DNA from: a virus
Lineage: Duplodnaviria; Caudoviricetes
IMG/VR virus record: IMGVR_UViG_3300020034_000017
Coordinates: 1-57,341 of that record
DNA: 57,341 bases
Strand: one strand, 5' to 3'
Shown: positions 6,104 to 52,772 of the stretch, one piece after another
How the letters are laid out: each line of letters starts with the position of its first letter
Numbering within the stretch: position 1 is the first letter of the stretch
Notes under the pieces: generated by a model
What the model was told of the DNA's origin: nothing
What the model saw: the letters and a program-made list of their open reading frames with translations, nothing else
Databases searched by the model: none
Made by a program: the position numbers and the translations under genes

Positions 6104-6445
6104 TTGGCTCCACGATCTGGCCGCAAAACTCGTCCTGCAATGACGCCAGAAGGTAGAGAGAACCAGTTGATTTCCCTTGCTTATGATCTAGCGGAAAAAC
6201 AACTCAGAGATGGAACAGCTTCCTCTCAAGTCACAACGCAGCTTCTGAAGTACGGAAGCCAGCGGGAAAGGCTTGAACGAGCGCAAATCGAGAACCAAAA
6301 CCTTCTCTTGAGTGCAAAGGTGGATCAACTTACTTCAGCTCAACGAGTTGAGGAACTCTACACAGAGGCCATGGCAGCTTTCCGAGAGTACAAAGGAGAG
6401 ATTGTCGAGGACGATTACAAGGATGGGTACTATGACGATCGCTAG
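6104..6445 (+). CDS. Conserved helical protein, possible terminase small subunit
   Basis: PEGRENQLISLAYDLAEKQLRDGTASSQV motif; position before HNH and terminase. Confidence 0.55.
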   Translation: MAPRSGRKTRPAMTPEGRENQLISLAYDLAEKQLRDGTASSQVTTQLLKYGSQRERLERAQIENQNLLLSAKVDQLTSAQRVEELYTEAMAAFREYKGEIVEDDYKDGYYDDR

Positions 6446-6845
6446 GTGTTATTCAGAGTTGAAAAGGCTTGATTCGTTCGATGAACGATACGAGTACTTG
6501 AAGCTCGAAGGTGGTGTCGGTCGTTCCACGTTTGGATTCGATCGACACATCAACCAAGCGTTCTATCGATCTCGTCAGTGGCGTGATGTACGCAACTTCG
6601 TGTTGTACAGAGATGATGGTTGTGATCTAGGCGTTCTGGGCCATGAAATTCATGTCAACCCTTTGATTCATCACATGAATCCTATGGGAATTGACGATAT
6701 TCTGCATGGAGACGAGTCCATCTTGGATCCGGAATTCCTGATCACAACCACTCATCACACCCACAACGCGATTCATTTTGGTGTAGAGAACAACGGTCCA
6801 AAGGTAGTCACAGAGAGGTCCCCAGGAGACACCAAACTTTGGTAA
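6432..6845 (+). CDS. HNH endonuclease (packaging-associated)
   Basis: WRDVRNFVLYRDDGCDLG...IHHMNP...LITTTHHTHNAIH. Confidence 0.8.
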   Translation: MTIARCYSELKRLDSFDERYEYLKLEGGVGRSTFGFDRHINQAFYRSRQWRDVRNFVLYRDDGCDLGVLGHEIHVNPLIHHMNPMGIDDILHGDESILDPEFLITTTHHTHNAIHFGVENNGPKVVTERSPGDTKLW

Positions 6846-6857
6846 GGAGGTGTATTA

Positions 6858-7223
6858 GTGGAAGAAAGCATTCTAAAGAGCATTCGAGCAATGCTTAACA
6901 TCGGCGCTGACGATGCGACTTTTGATGGTGAGATCATTCCACACATCAACGCGACATTTTCAACGTTGAGCCAGATTGGCGTCGGTAACGCGACACCCAT
7001 CACTAGTGATGAGCTGACGTGGTCAGATCTTGCTCTTCCGGATGAACAATTGAACCTCGTCAAGACTCTCATGCAGATGAAAGTGAAGCTTGGGTTTGAT
7101 CCTCCTGGCACCTCCTATCTCATCGACGTGATCAAAGAGATGATCAGGGAGCAAGAGTATCGACTTCAGACGTTCGCAGAGTGCACGGATACTTGGCCGA
7201 TCGAGGAGGTGATAACGCCATGA
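6858..7223 (+). CDS. Putative head-tail adaptor
   Basis: SILKSIRAML..FDGEIIPHIN..FDPP pattern, gp6-like size. Confidence 0.55.
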   Translation: MEESILKSIRAMLNIGADDATFDGEIIPHINATFSTLSQIGVGNATPITSDELTWSDLALPDEQLNLVKTLMQMKVKLGFDPPGTSYLIDVIKEMIREQEYRLQTFAECTDTWPIEEVITP

Positions 7224-8098
7224 GCGATCCAGTTCTTGAGCATCTAGAACACCATGGAATCAAAGGAATGAAGTGGGGTCAACGTAAAGACAAGAAGTGG
7301 CAAGCGAACATTTACAGCGTTCGTGGCGCTGTTGCTGTTCATAACGCCGTGGCTGAGAGAATGAACAACGGTGGTCTTGACAAACTGAACAACCAGCCGA
7401 AGTACAAGAATGCGACGAAGCTAATCGACCTCGATACTGGTCAGCCTGTTGGCGCACTCGGTAAGCAGTACATGCGCGACTACAACAAGATGGCTGAGCG
7501 GTTCTCTCACGAAGCCGTTGCCGAAGTGCACGGTACTAGTCCGTCGGGCGGCTTCAAGGCGACTATGGACACCTCGAATCCTAATCAGTGGAGCGTCAAG
7601 GTTGTAAAGACTGAGGCCGCGCATGCGGTACTGGCCAATGAAGACTTCATTTTCGAGGTGGATCACGACCGGCGCGGTATGATCACGTCGACCAAACTGA
7701 TCAAGGATGGCCTAAAGCAGGACAATCTGGAACATCACGGAGTCAAAGGAATGAAGTGGGGTGTCCGCCGAAAGGTTGGCTCAAATGGACGGGTCTCCTC
7801 TAAGAAACAACCAAGTGTTGATTTCAAAACAACGGCGCCTCTTCGTAAACGACCGCCTCACACGCTCAGTAACATGCAGCTCAAGAAGGTTACTGAGAGA
7901 ATGAATCTAGAGAAGAAGTTTTCCGACATGAATCCAAGCAGAGCGGCAAAAGGTAAAGAAGCTGTGAATAAAATGCTTCAACTTGGTACTGGTGCGGTCG
8001 GTGTTGGTGGTTTGGTTAAACTGGCTACTCATGAAAAGACACGTGAGTTGGGCAGGAAGGCTCTTACCATCGATTATACAAAAAAGTGGTCTGGATGA
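7220..8098 (+). CDS. Basic protein with two LEHHGxKGMKWG modules
   Basis: LEHHGIKGMKWGQRK near the N-terminus and LEHHGVKGMKWGVRR internally. Confidence 0.75.
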   Translation: MSDPVLEHLEHHGIKGMKWGQRKDKKWQANIYSVRGAVAVHNAVAERMNNGGLDKLNNQPKYKNATKLIDLDTGQPVGALGKQYMRDYNKMAERFSHEAVAEVHGTSPSGGFKATMDTSNPNQWSVKVVKTEAAHAVLANEDFIFEVDHDRRGMITSTKLIKDGLKQDNLEHHGVKGMKWGVRRKVGSNGRVSSKKQPSVDFKTTAPLRKRPPHTLSNMQLKKVTERMNLEKKFSDMNPSRAAKGKEAVNKMLQLGTGAVGVGGLVKLATHEKTRELGRKALTIDYTKKWSG

Positions 8099-11021: not shown

Positions 11022-12332
11022 TTGGCCATCCGCGATAGAATGAAGAAAGCATGGAACGCGTTTCTTAATGTTGGACAGCAATCTACTGTCGAGTATGGCA
11101 CTAGCAGCTCATATTCTTCGAGTTCTCCGTCTCGGACCAGTAGGATGAGGAGTTACAACGATCGTTCCATTCTTACGTCGATCACGACTCGAATCGGTAT
11201 CGACGTCGCTGACGTTCTTATTCGTCACGTCAAACTCGACGAACAAGATCGATATTTGGAAGACGTGGATAGCAAACTCAACGCCTGCTTGACTTGGGAA
11301 GCCAATCTCGACCAATCACCACGAGCATTTCGTCAGGACATTGCACAGACCATTCTCGATCGAGGAGTTTGTGCTCTTGTTCCTGTCGACACTACGGTTG
11401 ACCCACAGACGCAAGAGATTTTCGATGTCATCACACTTCGTGTTGGCACAGTCAGTACTTGGTCAGCCAAACATATTCGTGTAGATGTTTGGAACGAGGC
11501 AAAGGGACGAAGGCAAGAGATCACTCTTGAAAAGCGATACGTGGCCATCATTGAGAATCCGCTTTTCGCTGTGATGAATGAGCACAACTCTACGTTCCAA
11601 CGTCTTTGTCGGAAGCTCACGCTGCTTGATGCTGTTGATGAGCAGGCAAGCTCTGGTAAGTTGGACATCATTATCCAGCTGCCATATGCCATCAAGACAG
11701 AGGCAAAGCGAGAAGCTGCAGAGATGCGTCGCACAGATATTGAAATGCAGCTGACGGGAAGTAAGTACGGAATTGCTTACGTCGATGGTACCGAAAAGAT
11801 CATCCAGCTGAATCGTCCTGCTGAGAACAACCTCATGAAGGCCATTGAGTTCCTTACAACCATGTTGTATGGACAGCTTGGTATCACAGAGGAAGTAATG
11901 AATGGTACAGCAGACGAAAAGACCATGCTCAATTATCAGAATCGAACAATCAAACCGATTGTTGATTCTATTGTCGAAAGCATGCAGAGATCGTTCCTTG
12001 GGCCTGCTGGAAAGCGGCGTAATGAACGTATTCTCTACTTCATCGACCCGTTCAAGCTGGTTACCATGAAGGATCTTGCCGAAATTGCTGACAAACTGAC
12101 TCGTAACGAGGTCATCACTTCTAATGAGATCAGAGGTGGCATCGGCATGAAGCCTTCGCCGGATCCAAAGGCAGATAAGCTTGGTAATCCCAACATGCCT
12201 GATGGTACAACCACGGTTAATGTTGGGACTTCTGCGGAAGATGACGCTGGTACCACAGCTGCTTTGGATGATCTAGATTCAACAATCGGCGACATTCTTA
12301 CTGAGTTTGGGGGTGAGCCGCCTAATGAATGA
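11022..12332 (+). CDS. Portal protein
   Basis: Position between terminase and capsid, 436 aa, HK97-like C-terminal TSNEIR motif. Confidence 0.88.
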   Translation: MAIRDRMKKAWNAFLNVGQQSTVEYGTSSSYSSSSPSRTSRMRSYNDRSILTSITTRIGIDVADVLIRHVKLDEQDRYLEDVDSKLNACLTWEANLDQSPRAFRQDIAQTILDRGVCALVPVDTTVDPQTQEIFDVITLRVGTVSTWSAKHIRVDVWNEAKGRRQEITLEKRYVAIIENPLFAVMNEHNSTFQRLCRKLTLLDAVDEQASSGKLDIIIQLPYAIKTEAKREAAEMRRTDIEMQLTGSKYGIAYVDGTEKIIQLNRPAENNLMKAIEFLTTMLYGQLGITEEVMNGTADEKTMLNYQNRTIKPIVDSIVESMQRSFLGPAGKRRNERILYFIDPFKLVTMKDLAEIADKLTRNEVITSNEIRGGIGMKPSPDPKADKLGNPNMPDGTTTVNVGTSAEDDAGTTAALDDLDSTIGDILTEFGGEPPNE

Positions 12333-16460: not shown

Positions 16461-17006
16461 ATGCTTAGAGTGGTCATCAAAGGAGAAGAATTGTGGAATG
16501 AAGGTAAGAACGAATTCATTCCGCCGAAGCCGGATGTCACTCTAGAACTCGAGCATTCTTTGCTCTCTGTGTCAAAATGGGAGTCGAAATACGAAAAGCC
16601 GTTCCTTCTCCCAGGTCGTAAAACAGTCGATGAGGTATACGATTACATCAGAGCAATGGTGATAACGCCCAACTTTGACCCCGGCGTTCTGGATGACTTG
16701 TCTCAAGAGTTTCTTAGTTCGGTTCAAGCCTACATTGACTCGAACCAAACGGCGACAACTTTTGGACATATGCCAGAGCGTCGGGGTCAGGGCGAAATCA
16801 TCACAGCAGAGCTAGTTTATTGGTGGATGGTGAATTTCAACATTCCGTTCACTTGTGAAACTTGGCATTTGAATCGACTCTTTGCTCTCATTCGAATTGC
16901 CAACGTCAAGACCTCGAAGCCAAAGCGCATGTCCAGGAATGAGATGGCTCAGAGGAACAAGGAGATTAACGATCGTAGAAGAGCCGAACTAGGCACCAAG
17001 GGATGA
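16461..17006 (+). CDS. Putative tail assembly chaperone
   Basis: Position after the major tail gene; LEHSLLSVSKWESK and WHLNRL motifs. Confidence 0.55.
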   Translation: MLRVVIKGEELWNEGKNEFIPPKPDVTLELEHSLLSVSKWESKYEKPFLLPGRKTVDEVYDYIRAMVITPNFDPGVLDDLSQEFLSSVQAYIDSNQTATTFGHMPERRGQGEIITAELVYWWMVNFNIPFTCETWHLNRLFALIRIANVKTSKPKRMSRNEMAQRNKEINDRRRAELGTKG

Positions 17007-25434: not shown

Positions 25435-25731
25435 ATGCTGAATTTTTCCTGGAACAAAGAACCGGAAAAGCACATTGACAAGGAAATCACTGCTGTCACG
25501 CGGAAGATGCATGATGAAGGAGTAGATTCGGAGAAGTACCCCACGCTGTTGCGCTATCTGGAGCGTCTACACGAGCTGAAGAAGAAGAACAAGCTTCCGC
25601 CCGTTAGCCGCGACACACTCGCAATTGTCGTCGGGAACTTCCTGATCGCACTCGCCATCATCGCATATGAGCAAAAGCATGTGATGACCACGAAGGTGCC
25701 GATCCCGTTCACCAGAACAGGGAAGACCTAG
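25435..25731 (+). CDS. Small membrane-associated protein
   Basis: RBS GAAAGGA; VSRDTLAIVVGNFLIALAIIAYEQ. Confidence 0.7.
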   Translation: MLNFSWNKEPEKHIDKEITAVTRKMHDEGVDSEKYPTLLRYLERLHELKKKNKLPPVSRDTLAIVVGNFLIALAIIAYEQKHVMTTKVPIPFTRTGKT

Positions 25732-25752
25732 TACGACCACCAGAAGTAGATG

Positions 25753-25807
25753 AAAGCATAGAAGCCGTGTGATATTCGAGAGAGTATTACATGGCTTCTA
25801 TGCTTTT
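25753..25807. terminator. Long (about 25 bp) hairpin, likely terminator closing the structural region
   Basis: AAAGCATAGAAGCCGTGTGATATTC-GAGA-GAGTATTACATGGCTTCTATGCTTTT. Confidence 0.8.
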
Positions 25808-26024
25808 CTGGCTGAAAACGCAATTTTCACGACGATTGGTCTTTTTTCTCCTCTGAAAATCCCCGGGGGGAAATTTTCGTGCAACTTTTTGAAAAAACAC
25901 CCAGCTAGATTCCTCTGTAATCGATTTGGTGATCCATTCATGAGTGTTGATCCCCGAAAGTTGCTCAAACAGCTTAGAACGCATTCTAGAGGGGTATCCG
26001 CTGATTTAACGGTTATTTCGCACG

Positions 26025-37889: not shown

Positions 37890-38070
37890 TACCTACAAAT
37901 GCGACTACGTGGGGACAGTCGACTTCGGCGATGGTCCGGTACAAGTTCGTTGCACTGAGACCGGTCCTCATGATGAACACAAGTGTGAGGTGATCCTAGG
38001 AGCAACAATCCCTCCTGAAGGTTTCGTCACGAAGAACGTGTTCGATGATGACGGTGATGCTGGTGGGTAA
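37882..38070 (+). CDS. Small Cys/His protein
   Basis: C..CTETGPHDEH; RBS GAGGAGG. Confidence 0.5.
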   Translation: MGDTYKCDYVGTVDFGDGPVQVRCTETGPHDEHKCEVILGATIPPEGFVTKNVFDDDGDAGG

Positions 38071-38383
38071 GGATGCATATATTCCCAATGACTACGTTCC
38101 AAAGCTGGGAAGCTGTCTCGAGGATCAAGGTGTTGTGGAGATCGTCGAGGCGGTAAAAAGGCGTCAGTCAAAGTTCCCGGACGAGCCACTTGAGCAGACT
38201 CTCCCGCTTATTCTCATGAACATCGGAGATAGGTATATTCCTCTTCGATGCGAACAGAAAGAGTGGCGAGGATACAAGAAGGATATTCTGGTTAAGCCAG
38301 GAGAAGACCCGACGTGTCCTAACGGTCATGCTCTCATCAAACAACGTGGTGTAGCACTAGGTTGGGTCATCGACAATCGATGA
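38057..38383 (+). CDS. Hypothetical protein
   Basis: ORF with CPNGH motif; start uncertain. Confidence 0.5.
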   Translation: MLVGKDAYIPNDYVPKLGSCLEDQGVVEIVEAVKRRQSKFPDEPLEQTLPLILMNIGDRYIPLRCEQKEWRGYKKDILVKPGEDPTCPNGHALIKQRGVALGWVIDNR

Positions 38384-38414
38384 TGGACGCGGAGACTGAT
38401 CCGAAAGGGCTAAG

Positions 38415-38648
38415 ATGGCCTACGAGGAATTGGTTATACCAGCCATTCAGAGAAAGGATGTGAAAGGCTTTGATCATCGGTTTCGGTCGTTTGCTACTAA
38501 AGAGGAACGCGACCGAACGTTGAAGATGATCCGAGAGAACGAAAGCGCAGTGTTAGCAGCAAATATGGAACCAGTTATGCTTCGGGTTATCGTCGAGACA
38601 GACGAGAACAACCAACTAACTTTGGATCTGAAACAGAAAGGAGGATGA
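38415..38648 (+). CDS. Hypothetical protein
   Basis: ORF in operon. Confidence 0.55.
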   Translation: MAYEELVIPAIQRKDVKGFDHRFRSFATKEERDRTLKMIRENESAVLAANMEPVMLRVIVETDENNQLTLDLKQKGG

Positions 38649-38649
38649 T

Positions 38650-38844
38650 ATGGACGAAAGCCCAATTCTTCGTTACTTTGTGTACGACCACCTACCAGAG
38701 AAACTTCAGGACGTGAGCAAGGCGTTTTCGATCTTGGCCCATGCAATCGAGGAGACTCTTCCGGTAGGGCCTGAGAAGTCGACGGCACTCAGAAAACTCT
38801 TGGAGGCAAAGGACGCAGCTGTTCGAGCAGCACTTGACGCCTAG
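38650..38844 (+). CDS. Small helical-hairpin protein (Acb2/Tad1-like candidate)
   Basis: ILRYF.YDHLP..LQ.VS..F..LA..LP.GPEKSTALRKLLEAKDAAVRA; RBS AAAGGAGG. Confidence 0.65.
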   Translation: MDESPILRYFVYDHLPEKLQDVSKAFSILAHAIEETLPVGPEKSTALRKLLEAKDAAVRAALDA

Positions 38845-38846
38845 CA

Positions 38847-38871
38847 CGCAGAAAAAACATGCAGTATAATG
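38847..38871 (+). promoter_or_regulatory. Candidate phage promoter, copy 7
   Basis: CGCA-GAAAA-AACA-TGCAG-TATAAT-G. Confidence 0.7.
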
Positions 38872-38953
38872 AGAAGGCGTCGATGTACTAACACGATAGT
38901 ACGTCACCAGACACCATCTCATCTTATTTTTGTCTCTCACGAAAGGGAGCCGA

Positions 38954-39331
38954 TTGGGAAAGAAGCGAAAGCACAGGCCCTTTGTTGGGGTTCACCACAA
39001 GCAGGTTTGGCTCAAGACACGAGGACACAACGTCGATATTCACGTTTACCCAGTCATGCAAATGCTCTGGGACGCAGGGATTCAGACGTTCTTTTCTTGT
39101 CAGGGTGGACCGGACAAGCTCTACCTCTACGGCGGGGGGAAGAAGATCAAGTCAGATCGAGCGATGGTCATCGTCTTGAAGAAAGATGTTGATCGGGTCT
39201 GCGATATCTTGGCGCATCTGAACCCGACCGTTGAGAAGTGGGACAACCGGTACCGACGAGATCATGCAGCAATCAAGTTCGACCCGTCCCAAGAGGCACA
39301 AGCAGCAAGAGTCACAGTTCAAGGAGAGTAA
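38954..39331 (+). CDS. Hypothetical basic protein
   Basis: RBS GAAAGGGAG before TTG; LWDAGIQTFFSCQG motif. Confidence 0.6.
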   Translation: MGKKRKHRPFVGVHHKQVWLKTRGHNVDIHVYPVMQMLWDAGIQTFFSCQGGPDKLYLYGGGKKIKSDRAMVIVLKKDVDRVCDILAHLNPTVEKWDNRYRRDHAAIKFDPSQEAQAARVTVQGE

Positions 39332-39334
39332 AGA

Positions 39335-39950
39335 CCTGGTGAAGGACACACCAAAAGACGGCTGTGCATGGTCGTAGTGAAAAAACCGCTTCGTGGACGC
39401 TTTTGCCGGTAGCCTTCGGGAGCCGGGTTGCGACAGAGCTACCGAACAACACTCAGTTTGGGATGCAATTGCTCGGCTGGAGAGCTCGAGCAGCGAAGGA
39501 CGTGGAGGAGAGCAAAATGTATTCATGTGGGCGCCCTGCGTTAAGTATCGGAAAGACCGAGGCGTTTACGTTTTACTCTTCTCCGCAATCTCTCAGTGGG
39601 GACACCATAATGTACTGACGTCGGGGGAAGTACATTATGCTGATGAGGCTTCGGCGCTTTGAGGACGAAGGTTCCTTAGACCTTATCCTTGGCGACGATC
39701 CAAATCTAACCCACTGTTCTTAGTATGGTCCGTGCTGGTCTACGGCATTCGGATAAGGAGACACCACGGGGAGTGGTTCTCTGAAGAGGGAATGATTAAA
39801 CCCGCCATACTGAGCTCTAGGGTGCTAAGAATTGGGAATGCAACCGTTTCGTCGGGTTACGGTTAGTACCAAGAGTCTTACTGTCTGCGCAGGATTACTT
39901 GACGGTCATCCTAGTCAGGCCACCCTAGTTCCTACCCACAGCTTCTCATA
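39335..39950 (+). ncRNA. Candidate large structured non-coding RNA (about 585-615 nt)
   Basis: No RBS-led ORF in an otherwise gene-dense genome; about 10 helices found by eye including nested long-range pairs; UUCG loops. Confidence 0.65.
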
Positions 39951-39962
39951 TTTGGAGGACTA

Positions 39963-40304
39963 ATGAATTTGCAAGAAGCTAAGACCCTACTCGACGGATG
40001 CGAACGCCTTGAGCTTCGCGACCACGCCTTTGGTGACAAGGAGGTTACATGGAAGAAAGACGGGATCGTCATCGCGATCGGATACGCCGGCAGTGCTGCG
40101 GCCTCTGTGACTATTACGGTCGACCCTACCGCGTCATTTGGAAACGACGACGCTCGCTCACTAATGTCTTGTGGCACACCGGGTTCAGTTGGTCGAAACG
40201 ACGAGACCGGACCGGAACAGTTCGTCGAGGGCCAAACCATGCCAGGCCTAACTCTTGAGGGAGTTCGTCAAGAATTGATTGACGAAAGGGTTTGGCTCAA
40301 ATAA
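39963..40304 (+). CDS. Hypothetical protein
   Basis: RBS TTGGAGGA. Confidence 0.65.
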   Translation: MNLQEAKTLLDGCERLELRDHAFGDKEVTWKKDGIVIAIGYAGSAAASVTITVDPTASFGNDDARSLMSCGTPGSVGRNDETGPEQFVEGQTMPGLTLEGVRQELIDERVWLK

Positions 40305-40402
40305 TCTAAGTGGGGTCGGTTTGCCATGTAATGGCCCGACTTAAACGACCATCTGGTGCCCACTATTTCTACAATCCGACCATATTCAAAGGAGACAATT
40401 CT

Positions 40403-40717
40403 GTGTTGGGTTTAACGCAAGAAGAAACCGCACTCTTGATGGAAAACGGATATACTCCTGGATACATGATGGACGTCCAGGAGGGGGATCTAGTAGCTAT
40501 CGCGCCAGCCATGAGGACTAGCTTTGATGGCAAGCCAAATCCTGTCAAGACATTGGTCGTTAAGCGCATTATGAACAACGATGCGTCGTACTACAATCCG
40601 GACAAGGACGAAGTGGTTCCCCACCGGGTAATCAACTTCATCGGGTTCAACCTTGACAATCTGCCGGAACATTGCAGTTACGGCCACACATATCCGTGTT
40701 TCTACAAAAGAGAATAG
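40403..40717 (+). CDS. Hypothetical protein
   Basis: RBS AAAGGAG before GTG. Confidence 0.6.
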   Translation: MLGLTQEETALLMENGYTPGYMMDVQEGDLVAIAPAMRTSFDGKPNPVKTLVVKRIMNNDASYYNPDKDEVVPHRVINFIGFNLDNLPEHCSYGHTYPCFYKRE

Positions 40718-40744
40718 GTAAGTAAGATGACCGACGACAAGGTC

Positions 40745-41128
40745 CAGCTCGCCGACGGCATCGAGAACGGGACGCTGAACTACTAGCAGTGCCGAGTGGG
40801 AGATAAAGACGGAAAACGAAGCAGACCAAACTCTGAAATAGGAGACCGCTTGTGGATACAGATCGGCTGACGCAACTAAGTCAGGTAGCCCACTACATTC
40901 TAAAGCTGCACGTTATCAGCGGCGATAGACGGCGATGATATCCTAACAGTGACGCCCATCAGCTTATCGATACTGCCCCACTCAACGATGGGTAAGTCGG
41001 TAGGAACCACTGGTGAGAAAACGAGCTGAGCAGATGGAGCCGCATTACTAAGTGTAGACATTGTATGCAGTGTGGTGTGGGTGCCGGCGCGTCTACCTCG
41101 GCAGATAACGAACCCACAATACCACACT
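40745..41128 (+). ncRNA. Candidate second structured non-coding RNA (about 385 nt)
   Basis: Nested long-range helices CAGCTCG/CGAGCTG, CCGAC/GTCGG, CATCG/CGATG, GAGTGGG/CCCACTC, plus a 3' hairpin. Confidence 0.55.
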
Positions 41129-41160
41129 CATATTCCAAAACTCACTCAAAGGAGTTGTTG

Positions 41161-41376
41161 ATGCCCGCTAAGAAGTTCATGCTCTTCGAAGACAATGAAG
41201 ATGGCACCACCACCTTGACCATTAACATGGCCGGTGAAGAGGAACTGACTTTTGTCATTCCTTTTGGTCTCGAAGAATTTGGGAACATGATTCCCCAGTC
41301 CACGATGGACGAAACAGCGGCCTTGACCATTGCGAATGTGATCCCAATCCCGAACGATGTAACCGGCGGCTTCTGA
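41161..41376 (+). CDS. Small acidic protein
   Basis: RBS AAAGGAG. Confidence 0.6.
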   Translation: MPAKKFMLFEDNEDGTTTLTINMAGEEELTFVIPFGLEEFGNMIPQSTMDETAALTIANVIPIPNDVTGGF

Positions 41377-41386
41377 AAGGAGGACC

Positions 41387-41962
41387 GTGTACACCTTTCC
41401 AAGCGAAGAGATCATCAAAACGTGTCATGACGCGACTCCAAACGACATGTATCCAAACAAGCATCCGTGGATTGTCGTGTTGGAGGAGTACCTGAGCGAG
41501 CAGATCTGTGACGAGATCATTGCCCGAGGTATTACTGAGGAGGCATATCGGTTCCCACAGTGCAACGCCGCGACCAGAGAACTCGAGATGCGAGCTCATC
41601 ATGAGCTGAAGCCGATTGCCGAAGTCATCGCCGATGTGAACCGGATGTTCTGGCAGTACAAGCTGGGGAATAACTGGACCGCTTGGATGCAGACATATCG
41701 TGAGAACGACAGCTACGAACCACACTTGGATGGATCAATCGGGCAGACACGAAAGCTGACCGCGATCGCGTTGCTCACTGATTCGAGCTACTACGTCGGC
41801 GGTGATCTGCTGTTCTATATCCATCCACACACCTTTCACGCTCCTCGACTCAGAGGGACCGTCATCGTGTTTCCTCACTGGGTGATCCATGAGGTAAAGG
41901 AAGTAAAAGCAGGCAATCGACAGACGATCAACCTTGGCGTCTGGGGTCCACCTTTCCAATAG
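41387..41962 (+). CDS. 2OG-Fe(II) oxygenase (prolyl-hydroxylase-like)
   Basis: YEPHLDG (HxD), RKLT, GGDL, GTVIVFP, HEVKEVKAGNR. Confidence 0.85.
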   Translation: MYTFPSEEIIKTCHDATPNDMYPNKHPWIVVLEEYLSEQICDEIIARGITEEAYRFPQCNAATRELEMRAHHELKPIAEVIADVNRMFWQYKLGNNWTAWMQTYRENDSYEPHLDGSIGQTRKLTAIALLTDSSYYVGGDLLFYIHPHTFHAPRLRGTVIVFPHWVIHEVKEVKAGNRQTINLGVWGPPFQ

Positions 41963-41972
41963 GAGGAGTTAG

Positions 41973-42737
41973 ATGATCATAAAAATGGGGTTATTCGATC
42001 TGATAGATCCTCCTCCTGGTCAAGCTGATAAGGTGATCGCGGCGTACCACGCTTGCTCATATCCTTGGCAGAGACTGATCCCGAGGTTGAGAAGTGATCC
42101 GCAAGGGCGGGTTCTGGTCAAGTGGCTGAACACTGGCCAAACCGTTTCTGGTTTGTGGATCTCCGGTACCAACGAGATTCATCTCTCGAATCTGAGCTAC
42201 CACATGCCGTATGACGTCGGTTTTGTTTTCTTGCACGAGGTCGGCCATCTTATCGATTCGGCAACGCTGAACGATGCGGAGAAAGCGGAGCTCATTTCCT
42301 TGATGCACACAATGGCACCTCAGATCGGGCACATCAACCACGATCATCCAGATGCTGGACACACCAGCGAGATCTGGAACAACTCCTCAGAACCATACAT
42401 GGCTCGCATCAAGGAGGCATTTGCGGATCTGTTTGTAGCGACCTTCGCACCAACGGTCTACAATGGCACAAGCGGTGGCCCAGCCTCAGAAGAACATTTC
42501 TTCAGGTTCGTCCACTGGGTACAGAATTTAGATTTCGTTCGACAGATAGTCCTTCAAAGGAGGATCCAAGTGTTTTCAGACGTACCTGCCACACACACGC
42601 ATGTTGAAGGTATCGAGTGGGCAGCCGGTCAGGGAATCGTTTCGGGTTATCCGGACGGTACCTTCAAGCCGAACGACCCGGTGAGCCGAGGCGCATTCGC
42701 AACCATGCTCAAGCGATACGACGATCTGCAACCCTAA
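41973..42737 (+). CDS. HExxH zinc-peptidase-like domain fused to a C-terminal SLH domain
   Basis: FLHEVGH..EAFADLF; FSDVP..H..GIEWAAGQGIVSGYPDGTFKPNDPVSRGAFATML. Confidence 0.8.
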   Translation: MIIKMGLFDLIDPPPGQADKVIAAYHACSYPWQRLIPRLRSDPQGRVLVKWLNTGQTVSGLWISGTNEIHLSNLSYHMPYDVGFVFLHEVGHLIDSATLNDAEKAELISLMHTMAPQIGHINHDHPDAGHTSEIWNNSSEPYMARIKEAFADLFVATFAPTVYNGTSGGPASEEHFFRFVHWVQNLDFVRQIVLQRRIQVFSDVPATHTHVEGIEWAAGQGIVSGYPDGTFKPNDPVSRGAFATMLKRYDDLQP

Positions 42738-46485: not shown

Positions 46486-46701
46486 ATGGTAATTATCAAG
46501 GTTAGTTTCACCAATCTTCACTTGATTACCGCATTAAATGCTGGGGTGATCCCGAACATCGATGAAGAGAACCCTATGTTTTTGATCATGGAGAGCGGAG
46601 AGGTAAATCGCATCATCTCGTCAGAGGAGCTACATGAGATTTCTACTACGAAGAAGTTGAATTTGAGAACGGTAGAGATTTTCTACGCATCTTTTACATA
46701 G
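46486..46701 (+). CDS. Hypothetical protein
   Basis: RBS AGGAGG. Confidence 0.6.
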   Translation: MVIIKVSFTNLHLITALNAGVIPNIDEENPMFLIMESGEVNRIISSEELHEISTTKKLNLRTVEIFYASFT

Positions 46702-52141: not shown

Positions 52142-52288
52142 AATGGAGATGAAATAGTGATGTCCAATTCTTCCGACTTTGGCATACGATTCAGATTTGA
52201 CAAACGTGGCACCGATGGGATTATACTGAAGTACACTAAAAAGTCGCTGAAATAGGGTCTTTATGTGTACATACGGTACATTTCATAG

Positions 52289-52431
52289 ATGTGTCAAATC
52301 TGATCGATTTAGAGCTAAAAACTCTCTACTACAGAACCTACTACATACGCTCTTTTCCTGCCCGCGTAAAGGAAGTAAGCGTATGTAGTGCGATCTTCAC
52401 TAGAGAGTTTTGGATTATGGATTTGACACAT
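52289..52431. repeat. Nested long inverted repeat (candidate origin/cruciform)
   Basis: ATGTGTCAAATC/GATTTGACACAT, AAAACTCTCTA/TAGAGAGTTTT, ACTACATACGCT/AGCGTATGTAGT, TTCCT/AGGAA. Confidence 0.75.
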
Positions 52432-52472
52432 TATTTGACACACGAGTCTAACCACACCAAATTGGAGGCGAA

Positions 52473-52772
52473 ATGGGACTTCTAAACGAATTAATCTTTA
52501 CTGAGGCAGTTGAGCAGGTTCAGGCGATTCTCACGTCTCAGAGCTCCGACGAGATTAGCGATCGTCTGGAAGCGATTGTCAAGATCGAGGATTTGGCACT
52601 GGCGTGCCTCATGTTGCTAGCTATGAAGGCTAAGGGTATTGACATATCTGATGCTAATGGAATTGAGATGGCAAACGCCCAACCAACAATCGCGGATCTC
52701 ATCATTGCTAGTCCAGGAACACCTATCGACGCATATGTGATTCTACCATCGAGAGGAGGACAACATGAGTAA
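52473..52772 (+). CDS. Hypothetical protein
   Basis: RBS TGGAGG. Confidence 0.6.
   Translation: MGLLNELIFTEAVEQVQAILTSQSSDEISDRLEAIVKIEDLALACLMLLAMKAKGIDISDANGIEMANAQPTIADLIIASPGTPIDAYVILPSRGGQHE

Follow-up and report, generated by a model that had tools for sequence, protein, structure and literature searches.

We analyzed a gene-free stretch of about 630 bases (39332-39962) in a 57,341-bp IMG/VR virus record with a completeness of about 95% (the whole record is referred to as the window), in which the open reading frames (ORFs) accepted as genes are all on the plus strand. The stretch separates two small plus-strand genes: P0001 (38930-39331), which is read as 133 amino acids (aa) from a TTG codon (the true start may be later) and marks where the non-coding stretch begins on its 5' side, and P0002 (39963-40304), which encodes 113 aa behind a GGAGGA ribosome-binding site at 39954-59 and has a strong codon score. 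From 5' to 3' the stretch holds module K, module A, a long hairpin, the domains B2 and B3, and module C. K together with A (39337-39502) and C (39817-39928) are two RNA motifs of many uncultured phage contigs that are not in Rfam 15. A first-pass annotation of the same DNA had proposed a single, closed RNA of about 600 nucleotides (nt), and it made no mention of pistol, the known self-cleaving ribozyme that heads the RNA in relatives of the region.

Relatives were collected through the P0002 family (57 proteins at E <= 0.01, P0002's own entry counted), whose alignment led to 98 loci, 18 viral and 80 from metagenomes. When the region was used as an nhmmer query among these loci, L071 was the only match, in two pieces of changed order: window positions 39363-39511 align with L071 1362-1504 (E 4e-8) and positions 39794-39944 with L071 850-992 (E 0.0025), and in L071 a small ORF separates the two pieces. 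The non-coding region of L071, taken as the next query, linked 8 further loci. A first model of module C, made from the window copy and that of L071, detected 12 copies in the P0002 loci and 22 more in further loci. The motif is a plus-strand three-way junction in which stem P1 joins 39817-24 to 39921-28, P2 joins 39826-30 to 39876-80 and P3 joins 39883-87 to 39916-20, the latter two stems being extended by inner pairs. Its junction strands, GCUA, UAC-N-GUCUG and GUCAGGCC (GUCAGNCC), are conserved and are intact in the window. In 30 aligned copies 96.1% of the cells are paired as compared to 75.6% after shuffling, 22 of the 28 pairs changed on both sides, and pairing drops to 34-45% in controls where the partner is slid by 1-3 columns; the 12-copy set gives the same covariation picture. 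These alignments were fitted to the covariance model and many of the copies are related, but even so the covariation margin of module C is large. One of its pairs is UG in 18 copies and UA in 9, and such retention of G-U pairs in covarying helices argues for the plus-strand reading. Model R2, whose 28 copies include neither the window nor L071, returns a single match when run against both strands of the 57-kb window (39807-39937, 70.3 bits, E 3.9e-18, E-values from models of the R2 and R3 type being rough) and scores L071 at 69.7 bits. Stand-alone copies of C (in the window, L071, L056, L123, L125, L127 and L120) are followed by the next ORF of the ORF listing after roughly 16-110 nt; in the window, the end of C at 39928 lies 26 nt from the P0002 ribosome-binding site and 35 nt from the P0002 start.

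Module K (39337-39395) is laid out as a hairpin with an AAGG loop (H1), a hairpin with a self-complementary loop (H2), and then AAAAAACCG. In the window H1 spans 39337-39353 (plus strand; stem UGGUG/CACCA, loop AAGGACA), H2 spans 39358-39375 (plus strand; stem ACGGCU/GGUCGU, 6-nt loop GUGCAU), and an A-rich block with CCGCUUCGUG follows on the same strand at 39376-39395, in which 16 nt are identical between the window and L071. Both GUGAAGG...ACAC (39339-39351) and AAAAAACCG (39380-39388) are present, and the module begins 6 nt 3' of the P0001 stop codon, not behind a pistol P3 arm. Copies of K came largely from a pattern scan of viral contigs on three K motifs, which yielded 38 loci, about 8 spurious ones and 2 duplicates being dropped by eye; the scan supplied 27 of the 36 aligned copies, and the other 9, from the P0002 loci and the window, do not depend on the scan. 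Across this alignment GUGAAGG and ACAC of H1 are invariant in 36/36 copies, as is AAAAAACC of the A-rich block, and the H1 helix is 97.8% paired, with pair 8/24 occurring as UA (29), CG (4) and GC (3). Model R3, built from 35 copies with the window left out and searched in the same way, likewise has a single match in the window, 39331-39398 (20.8 bits, E 0.0044). At the apex of H2, a palindrome of at least 4 nt is found in 30/36 copies, compared with 13.5 expected by shuffling and with 62/253 control hairpins of the same RNAs, and its core varies widely (GAUC, AGCU, GGCC, GCGC, GUAC, CUAG, ACGU, UGCA). The window loop, GUGCAU, is self-complementary if G-U pairs are counted, and by Watson-Crick pairing alone the palindrome is UGCA (4 nt). 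The H2 palindromes could instead be DNA-level sites for dimeric proteins.

In its relatives from soil phages, the RNA begins with the 5' half of a pistol ribozyme, consisting of a P1 hairpin, a UAAAUA linker, UUAGG and a strand that is complementary to the P1 loop and forms the pseudoknot. A strict pattern found 26 such halves. In 24 cases a K hairpin follows after 20-134 nt; the remaining 2 have no K downstream. The Rfam pistol model RF02679 matches 9/9 loci scanned at 31.2-48.1 bits, 7 of them at or above the gathering score of 34.5 and two at 33.6 and 31.2, and covariation between loop and pseudoknot strand is visible by eye (ACUGAG/CUCAGA, ACCGAG/CUCGGU, ACUGGG/CCCAGU). The model fits only the first two thirds of the ribozyme (P1, linker and pseudoknot), with the rest forced, because stem P3 is replaced by an arm of 75-150 nt. 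In at least 9 loci this P3 arm is module C, which abuts K in L168, L180, L177, L156, L145, L166, L179, L173 and L182; in other relatives the arm is closed by GUAGUGGG/CCCACUAC. By eye, moreover, the 4-5 bases preceding H1 are complementary to those that follow the UAAAUAG linker, and the two sides covary (GGCA/UGCC in L168, GUUC/GAAC in L179). As judged from sequence, this pairing would represent pistol stem P2, immediately preceded by the cleavage dinucleotide, and by analogy with the pistol consensus the (G/A)U dinucleotide that precedes K would be the cleavage site. Aligned regions after the pistol share the order H1 (loop AAGG), H2 and the AAACAAAAAACCGCUU block, and the relatives as a whole run from an upstream stop codon through the pistol 5' half, the large P3 arm, (G/A)U, module K and variable hairpins, often with a second C, to the next gene. 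The non-coding regions of L121 (2724-3443) and L122 (108-821) each hold two copies of C, the first forming the P3 arm of the pistol and the second following K, and the two loci differ by compensating changes in the H2 stem (UAUAG/CUAUA versus UACAG/CUGUA). L183, the one viral contig with a P0001 homologue, has C upstream of that gene and a pistol, arm and K-like stretch 0.8 kb downstream of it; the K-like stretch was assigned by eye and by a weak nhmmer match (E 0.033), and the R3 search of this contig did not detect it. Behind the L183 pistol lies about 1.1 kb without a convincing ORF (6172-7266), which may be a much longer family member.

The window itself lacks the ribozyme. RF02679 gave no match in 39200-40100 at E <= 10 or in the whole window at E <= 1, a pistol pattern run on both strands found no linker-plus-UUARG site in the window and no UUARG-N-GCG in 38000-42000, and the Rfam models of hammerhead, twister and hatchet have no match in the window. 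Two candidates were set aside. CUGAUGA at 39640 looks hammerhead-like by eye and was dropped for want of model support, and a permuted or split pistol drawing on CUCAG at 39592, CUGAG at 39810, UUAAAC at 39797 and GCGUUAAGUAUCGG at 39538 was rejected, as these pieces form no pistol core. Nor does the region match another RNA of Rfam 15, in agreement with the first-pass annotation, which by eye had found no known class for it. Rfam 15 reported only a transfer RNA (tRNA) in the whole window at the gathering score; at E <= 1 it added one chance-level match, the small nucleolar RNA Afu_294 at 46518-46602 (E 0.088; 29.5 bits, the gathering score being 43); and 39200-40100 scanned at E <= 10 gave only chance-level matches (E 2-4) to eukaryotic long non-coding RNA and small nucleolar RNA models.

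Directly after K, module A (39396-39502, plus strand) contains variable hairpins, including one at 39469-39493 with a GGAG loop in which 2 pairs changed on both sides relative to L071 (a comparison of two sequences only), and ends in the block CGAAGGACG (39494-39502); an AAGGAC(G/A) block lies 70-125 nt 3' of the A-rich block in 17/37 copies. The long hairpin that follows (39502-39586, plus strand) has a 20-bp base with 3 G-U pairs and pair probabilities of 0.86-0.99, and by eye a long hairpin stands at the same place in L071 and in L183, where the base helix is similar; the nhmmer support for this is weak (E 0.033). The window hairpin contains a 33-codon ORF (39517-39618) that begins behind GGAGGAG, a strong ribosome-binding site, and is not conserved in L071. 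Domain B2 (39594-39716, plus strand) is closed by CAGUGGG/CCCACUG with pair probabilities of 0.78-1.0; 15 nt of its 3' side (39701-39715) match exactly the 3' side of the P3 arm in the L083 pistol (E 0.014), and by eye its 5' side, AGUGGGGACA, resembles the same arm over 10 more bases. Domain B3 (39719-39814, plus strand) is closed by CUUAGUAUGG/CCAUACUGAG with pair probabilities of 0.58-0.97 and is a prediction only, as nhmmer and blastn found no homologue in the primase, P0002 or pattern-scan loci. The idea that B3 is a decayed second K (AAGGAGACAC at 39754, UUAAACCCGCC at 39796) arose by eye and is a weak one, R3 giving no match there at E <= 1. Compared with L120, L121, L122 and L123, the window carries about 300 extra bases between A and C. 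Conserved RNA structure with support from covariation is thus present, but conservation bears out only parts of the region: 39337-39502, 39817-39928 and, with less certainty, the base of the hairpin at 39502-39586.

The region had also been described as free of ORFs. Taken literally this is incorrect, since ORFs of 84 aa (39364-39618), 89 aa (39393-39662) and, on the minus strand, 124 aa (39152-39526) overlap it, but its non-coding status stands. A codon log-likelihood scan, for which 16 long genes of the window phage served as the training set, peaks at +6.7 bits inside 39300-39950, as compared to +15 to +29 for the flanking genes, and neither Pfam nor PHROG has a match to the internal ORFs. 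The possibility of a conserved small ORF spanning K and A was rejected because the gaps relative to L071 are not multiples of three. P0001 has a positive codon score, 15 homologues at 39-93% identity, no Pfam match and one weak PHROG match. P0002 yields an AlphaFold2 model with a predicted alpha/beta fold (predicted local distance difference test score 92.3) and has no Pfam match and no PDB fold match at E <= 0.001; its family is one of small proteins in which the motifs DHAFGD and RNDxTGP are invariant. Upstream, a motif with fixed spacing, CGCA-N5-TACATG-N3-TGTAATGAGAAG, recurs at 12 plus-strand sites at gene boundaries between 25389 and 53304 (e.g. 38847 and 46341), and a further copy lies at L071 600-625. 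The motif looks like a phage-specific promoter. Its copy at 38847-38875 (plus strand; CGCA-N-ACATG-N-TATAATGAGAAG) is the probable start of a transcript carrying P0001, the RNA region and P0002; a sigma-70 consensus scan does not include it among its sites. No terminator-like site was found on the plus strand of 39335-39963.

K was found in 11 of the 98 P0002 loci, and C likewise in 11/98; the order K, C, P0002-family gene is common to the window, L120, L121, L122 and L123. A link to the P0002 gene as a rule was nevertheless discarded, as 0/38 pattern-scan loci carry a P0002 homologue and their neighboring genes are diverse; the neighboring ORFs are mostly unrelated to one another (134/164 singletons). 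Other searches were negative: a distant-mode blastn of 39300-39990 against 50,697 phage records gave 0 matches, single P0001 and single P0002 sequences revealed no related loci among viral contigs, and a profile search of genome contigs with the P0001 alignment found nothing. The primase/polymerase of the window is 50-57% identical to proteins in 44 uncultured viral contigs, its nearest genome relatives, and nhmmer and blastn of the region against the 44 primase-gene loci of these relatives gave 0 matches; at the DNA level, Gordonia phages such as Rickmore match the window at 71-74%. Sequencing runs that contain the stretch yielded contigs that are the same as the window without a single difference, and they therefore offer no microdiversity for comparison.

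The pairings named in the first-pass annotation, checked by eye, all exist in the sequence at the positions given there. They comprise the closing pair GGCTGTG (39360-66)/CACAGCT (39937-43), the helix 39502-21/39567-86 (20 bp, 3 G-U pairs, 1 mismatch), CAGTGGG (39594)/CCCACTG (39710), the 11-bp helix CATAATGTACT/AGTACATTATG, CTTAGTATGG (39719)/CCATACTGAG (39805) with one G-U pair, CTAGGGTG (39817)/CACCCTAG (39921), both C-UUCG-G loops, and the alternative pairing TTCTTAGTA (39717)/TGCTAAGAA (39823); RNAfold recovers most of the helices with pair probabilities of 0.86-1.0. The plus strand folds with a minimum free energy of -228.9 kcal/mol, which corresponds to z -1.99 (20 shuffles) or z -2.9 (100 dinucleotide shuffles, 0/100 reaching the native energy), and the minus strand has z -1.33. 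On its own the plus-strand value looks significant, but similar values are common across the genome: 381 overlapping 300-nt windows have a mean z of -1.27 (standard deviation 1.6), with 28% below -2 and 12% below -3, and the four 300-nt windows wholly inside the region have z values of -1.36, -3.22, -2.42 and +0.57. The most negative values (-6.7 to -7.8) belong to 52201-52500, 12001-12300, 25651-25950 and 16651-16950, a far stronger signal than that of the region. A second ORF-poor paired region, at 40745-41128, has ordinary 300-nt z values (-0.3 to -1.4) and no match to the K or C model.

We consider it reasonably probable that 39332-39962 is a real, modular, conserved and uncatalogued phage RNA belonging to the pistol-headed family, present here without its pistol head; the window copy either lost the head or never had one. 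Most likely the stretch is transcribed on the plus strand together with P0001 and P0002. In relatives, self-cleavage by the pistol would leave a 5'-hydroxyl end a few bases before K, and in the window phage the RNA would remain joined to the P0001 message or be trimmed by host enzymes, forming a long folded 5' leader of P0002. Through the self-complementary apical loop of H2, two copies of K may pair loop to loop. The stretch 39503-39814 would be lineage-specific and may be the remainder of a second, decayed pistol unit. As for function, our best guess is that a stable folded leader, able to associate with itself, determines how stable the downstream message is or how well it is translated; the leader and dimer steps, taken alone, are less likely than the family identity.

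Several observations weigh against this reading. Sequencing runs containing the stretch are 3 DNA runs (two studies, soil metagenome), with no RNA runs among them; two of the three may be where the window DNA came from. Alignments fitted to a model lean towards structure, and the kinship of the copies means that the shuffle and binomial figures overstate independence; likewise, the pattern scan fixed GUGAAGG, ACAC and AAAAAACCG, and their invariance in 27/36 copies is partly built in. The R3 match in the window is weak given that its E-value is rough, and when the window H2 loop is shuffled alone a palindrome as long arises 25% of the time (p 0.25). In the ensemble the closing helix has a probability of about 0.9 as compared to 0.04 for H2, and because the z-scores of the region are ordinary for the window phage, folding energy alone does not set it apart. 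Positions 39587-39814, a third of the region, have no detected homologue beyond the one 15-nt match, and their structure is thus a prediction only. Finally, K and C are absent from the 44 primase loci of the nearest genome relatives, which makes the element sporadic and means that it could be dispensable.

Three alternatives were considered alongside the pistol-family reading. The first-pass annotation had proposed a free-standing, ornate RNA of about 600 nt, a new class akin to GOLLD and ROOL, closed by 39360-66/39937-43. The closing helix does form in the predicted fold (3' strand CACAGCU, 39937-39943, plus strand, pair probability 0.76-0.93), the domains are well defined in the ensemble, no shuffled sequence out of 100 is as stable (z -2.9), and the K-then-C order in five loci leaves room for K and C being one RNA. 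However, the closing helix takes up both the stem and the loop of the family-conserved hairpin H2, with which it overlaps at 39360-66, and enforcing H1 and H2 together costs only 0.9 kcal/mol; by eye, L071, the one relative with sequence homology, has no equivalent pair, and the closing pair is thus not supported. The modules also occur alone, reordered and in other gene contexts, with C before the small ORF and K after it in L071, C serving as the pistol arm in at least 9 loci, and C upstream of the P0001 homologue in L183, which leaves one closed 600-nt fold unsupported. Combined with a gap of only 35 nt from C to the P0002 start, which includes the ribosome-binding site and no terminator-like site, and with a fold z that is ordinary for this genome, these observations render the closed, free-standing RNA quite unlikely. 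A different possibility is that C is a candidate sensor of a ligand or protein, which would control translation when placed before a ribosome-binding site and make cleavage conditional when placed in the P3 arm, the rest being a passive leader. Sequence-conserved junction strands (GCUA, UAC-N-GUCUG, GUCAGNCC) between covarying stems are the usual pattern of a binding pocket, stand-alone copies end within roughly 16-110 nt of the next ORF, and C is also found inside a ribozyme stem that tolerates insertions. Set against this, a compact phage genome places any intergenic element near the next ORF, no Rfam riboswitch matches, and the downstream genes are diverse (134/164 neighboring ORFs being singletons), which argues against a metabolite-specific switch; we therefore give the sensor a low probability.

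The alternative that the region is mostly an inert spacer, with K and C as short conserved signals for processing or stability, or else as what is left of a ribozyme unit in decay, and with the other ~400 nt as lineage-specific filler whose hairpins mirror a genome that folds readily throughout, draws on the genome-wide background of folding (mean z -1.27, 28% of windows below -2), on the lack of a homologue for 39587-39814, on the missing pistol head and sporadic occurrence of the element, and on the resemblance of B2 to a pistol P3 arm deprived of its ribozyme. It is unlikely in our view, since K retains all of the family-invariant bases and C scores 70 bits with its junction bases all intact, which makes both modules look maintained rather than decayed, and since the 160-nt K-A part is alignable with L071 (E 4e-8) when the flanking small genes are not alignable as DNA. 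Returning to the pistol-headed family, a more ambitious version of it would see the K-C RNAs as widespread self-assembling phage RNAs in which the pistol releases a 5'-hydroxyl RNA, H2 joins at least two copies, and a C sensor gates cleavage or translation. We regard this as improbable, but if true, C-armed pistols would be natural allosteric ribozymes, and the headless window copy would show that the body works without the ribozyme. Independently of function, the pistol is tied here to a defined and conserved RNA body, K and often C, and its side arm is a conserved three-way junction that is also found on its own. K (36 aligned copies) and C (30) are candidates for RNA family databases, and the window offers a natural control, a copy with K and C from which the ribozyme is missing. 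For the window alone the gain is modest: a structured non-coding leader is annotated, of which about a third is unexplained.

The family can be compared with several known systems. The pistol self-cleaving ribozyme, for which Weinberg et al. 2015 is reportedly the reference, has to our knowledge been given no established biological role since Harris 2015. The accessible portion of Harris et al. 2015 (PMC4604425) associates pistol with phage and does not give a biological role for it. In keeping with that phage association, the relatives described here begin with the pistol 5' half and are intergenic in phage DNA; they differ from RF02679 in that P3 is a 75-150-nt arm and K lies outside the pistol model, and the window has no pistol at all. 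Titles and abstracts covered by a literature search held no description of a pistol-linked RNA body. RAGATH motifs are conserved structured RNAs associated with ribozymes, and K and C resemble them in being conserved, structured and placed beside self-cleaving ribozymes of phage-like DNA. However, Rfam 15 has no RAGATH family that matches K or C, whether in nine relatives (E <= 1) or in the window (E <= 10), and the sole weak RAGATH-25 match lies elsewhere (L049 818-847); K or C may already stand in the RAGATH lists of Weinberg 2015 and 2017.

GOLLD and ROOL, whose models are in Rfam, are, like the region, large multi-domain phage non-coding RNAs. The window region differs from them in being modular, with parts that occur apart and reordered, in having no Rfam match at E <= 10, and in adjoining a ribosome-binding site rather than a tRNA gene (the one tRNA is 4.4 kb away). 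Retroviral dimerization initiation site (DIS) hairpins are kissing-loop dimerization signals, and H2 differs from these in being deduced from sequence statistics, the window loop being a weak case. According to Kretsch et al., Nature 2025 (PMC12286853), GOLLD, ROOL and OLE form homo-oligomers, and a preprint (bioRxiv 10.64898/2026.07.01.735769) describes kissing loops that hold natural RNA assemblies together. The self-complementary loop suggests a comparable self-association here: like a kissing loop, H2 presents a 4-6-nt self-complementary apical loop, and among the relatives its sequence varies while its self-complementarity is kept.

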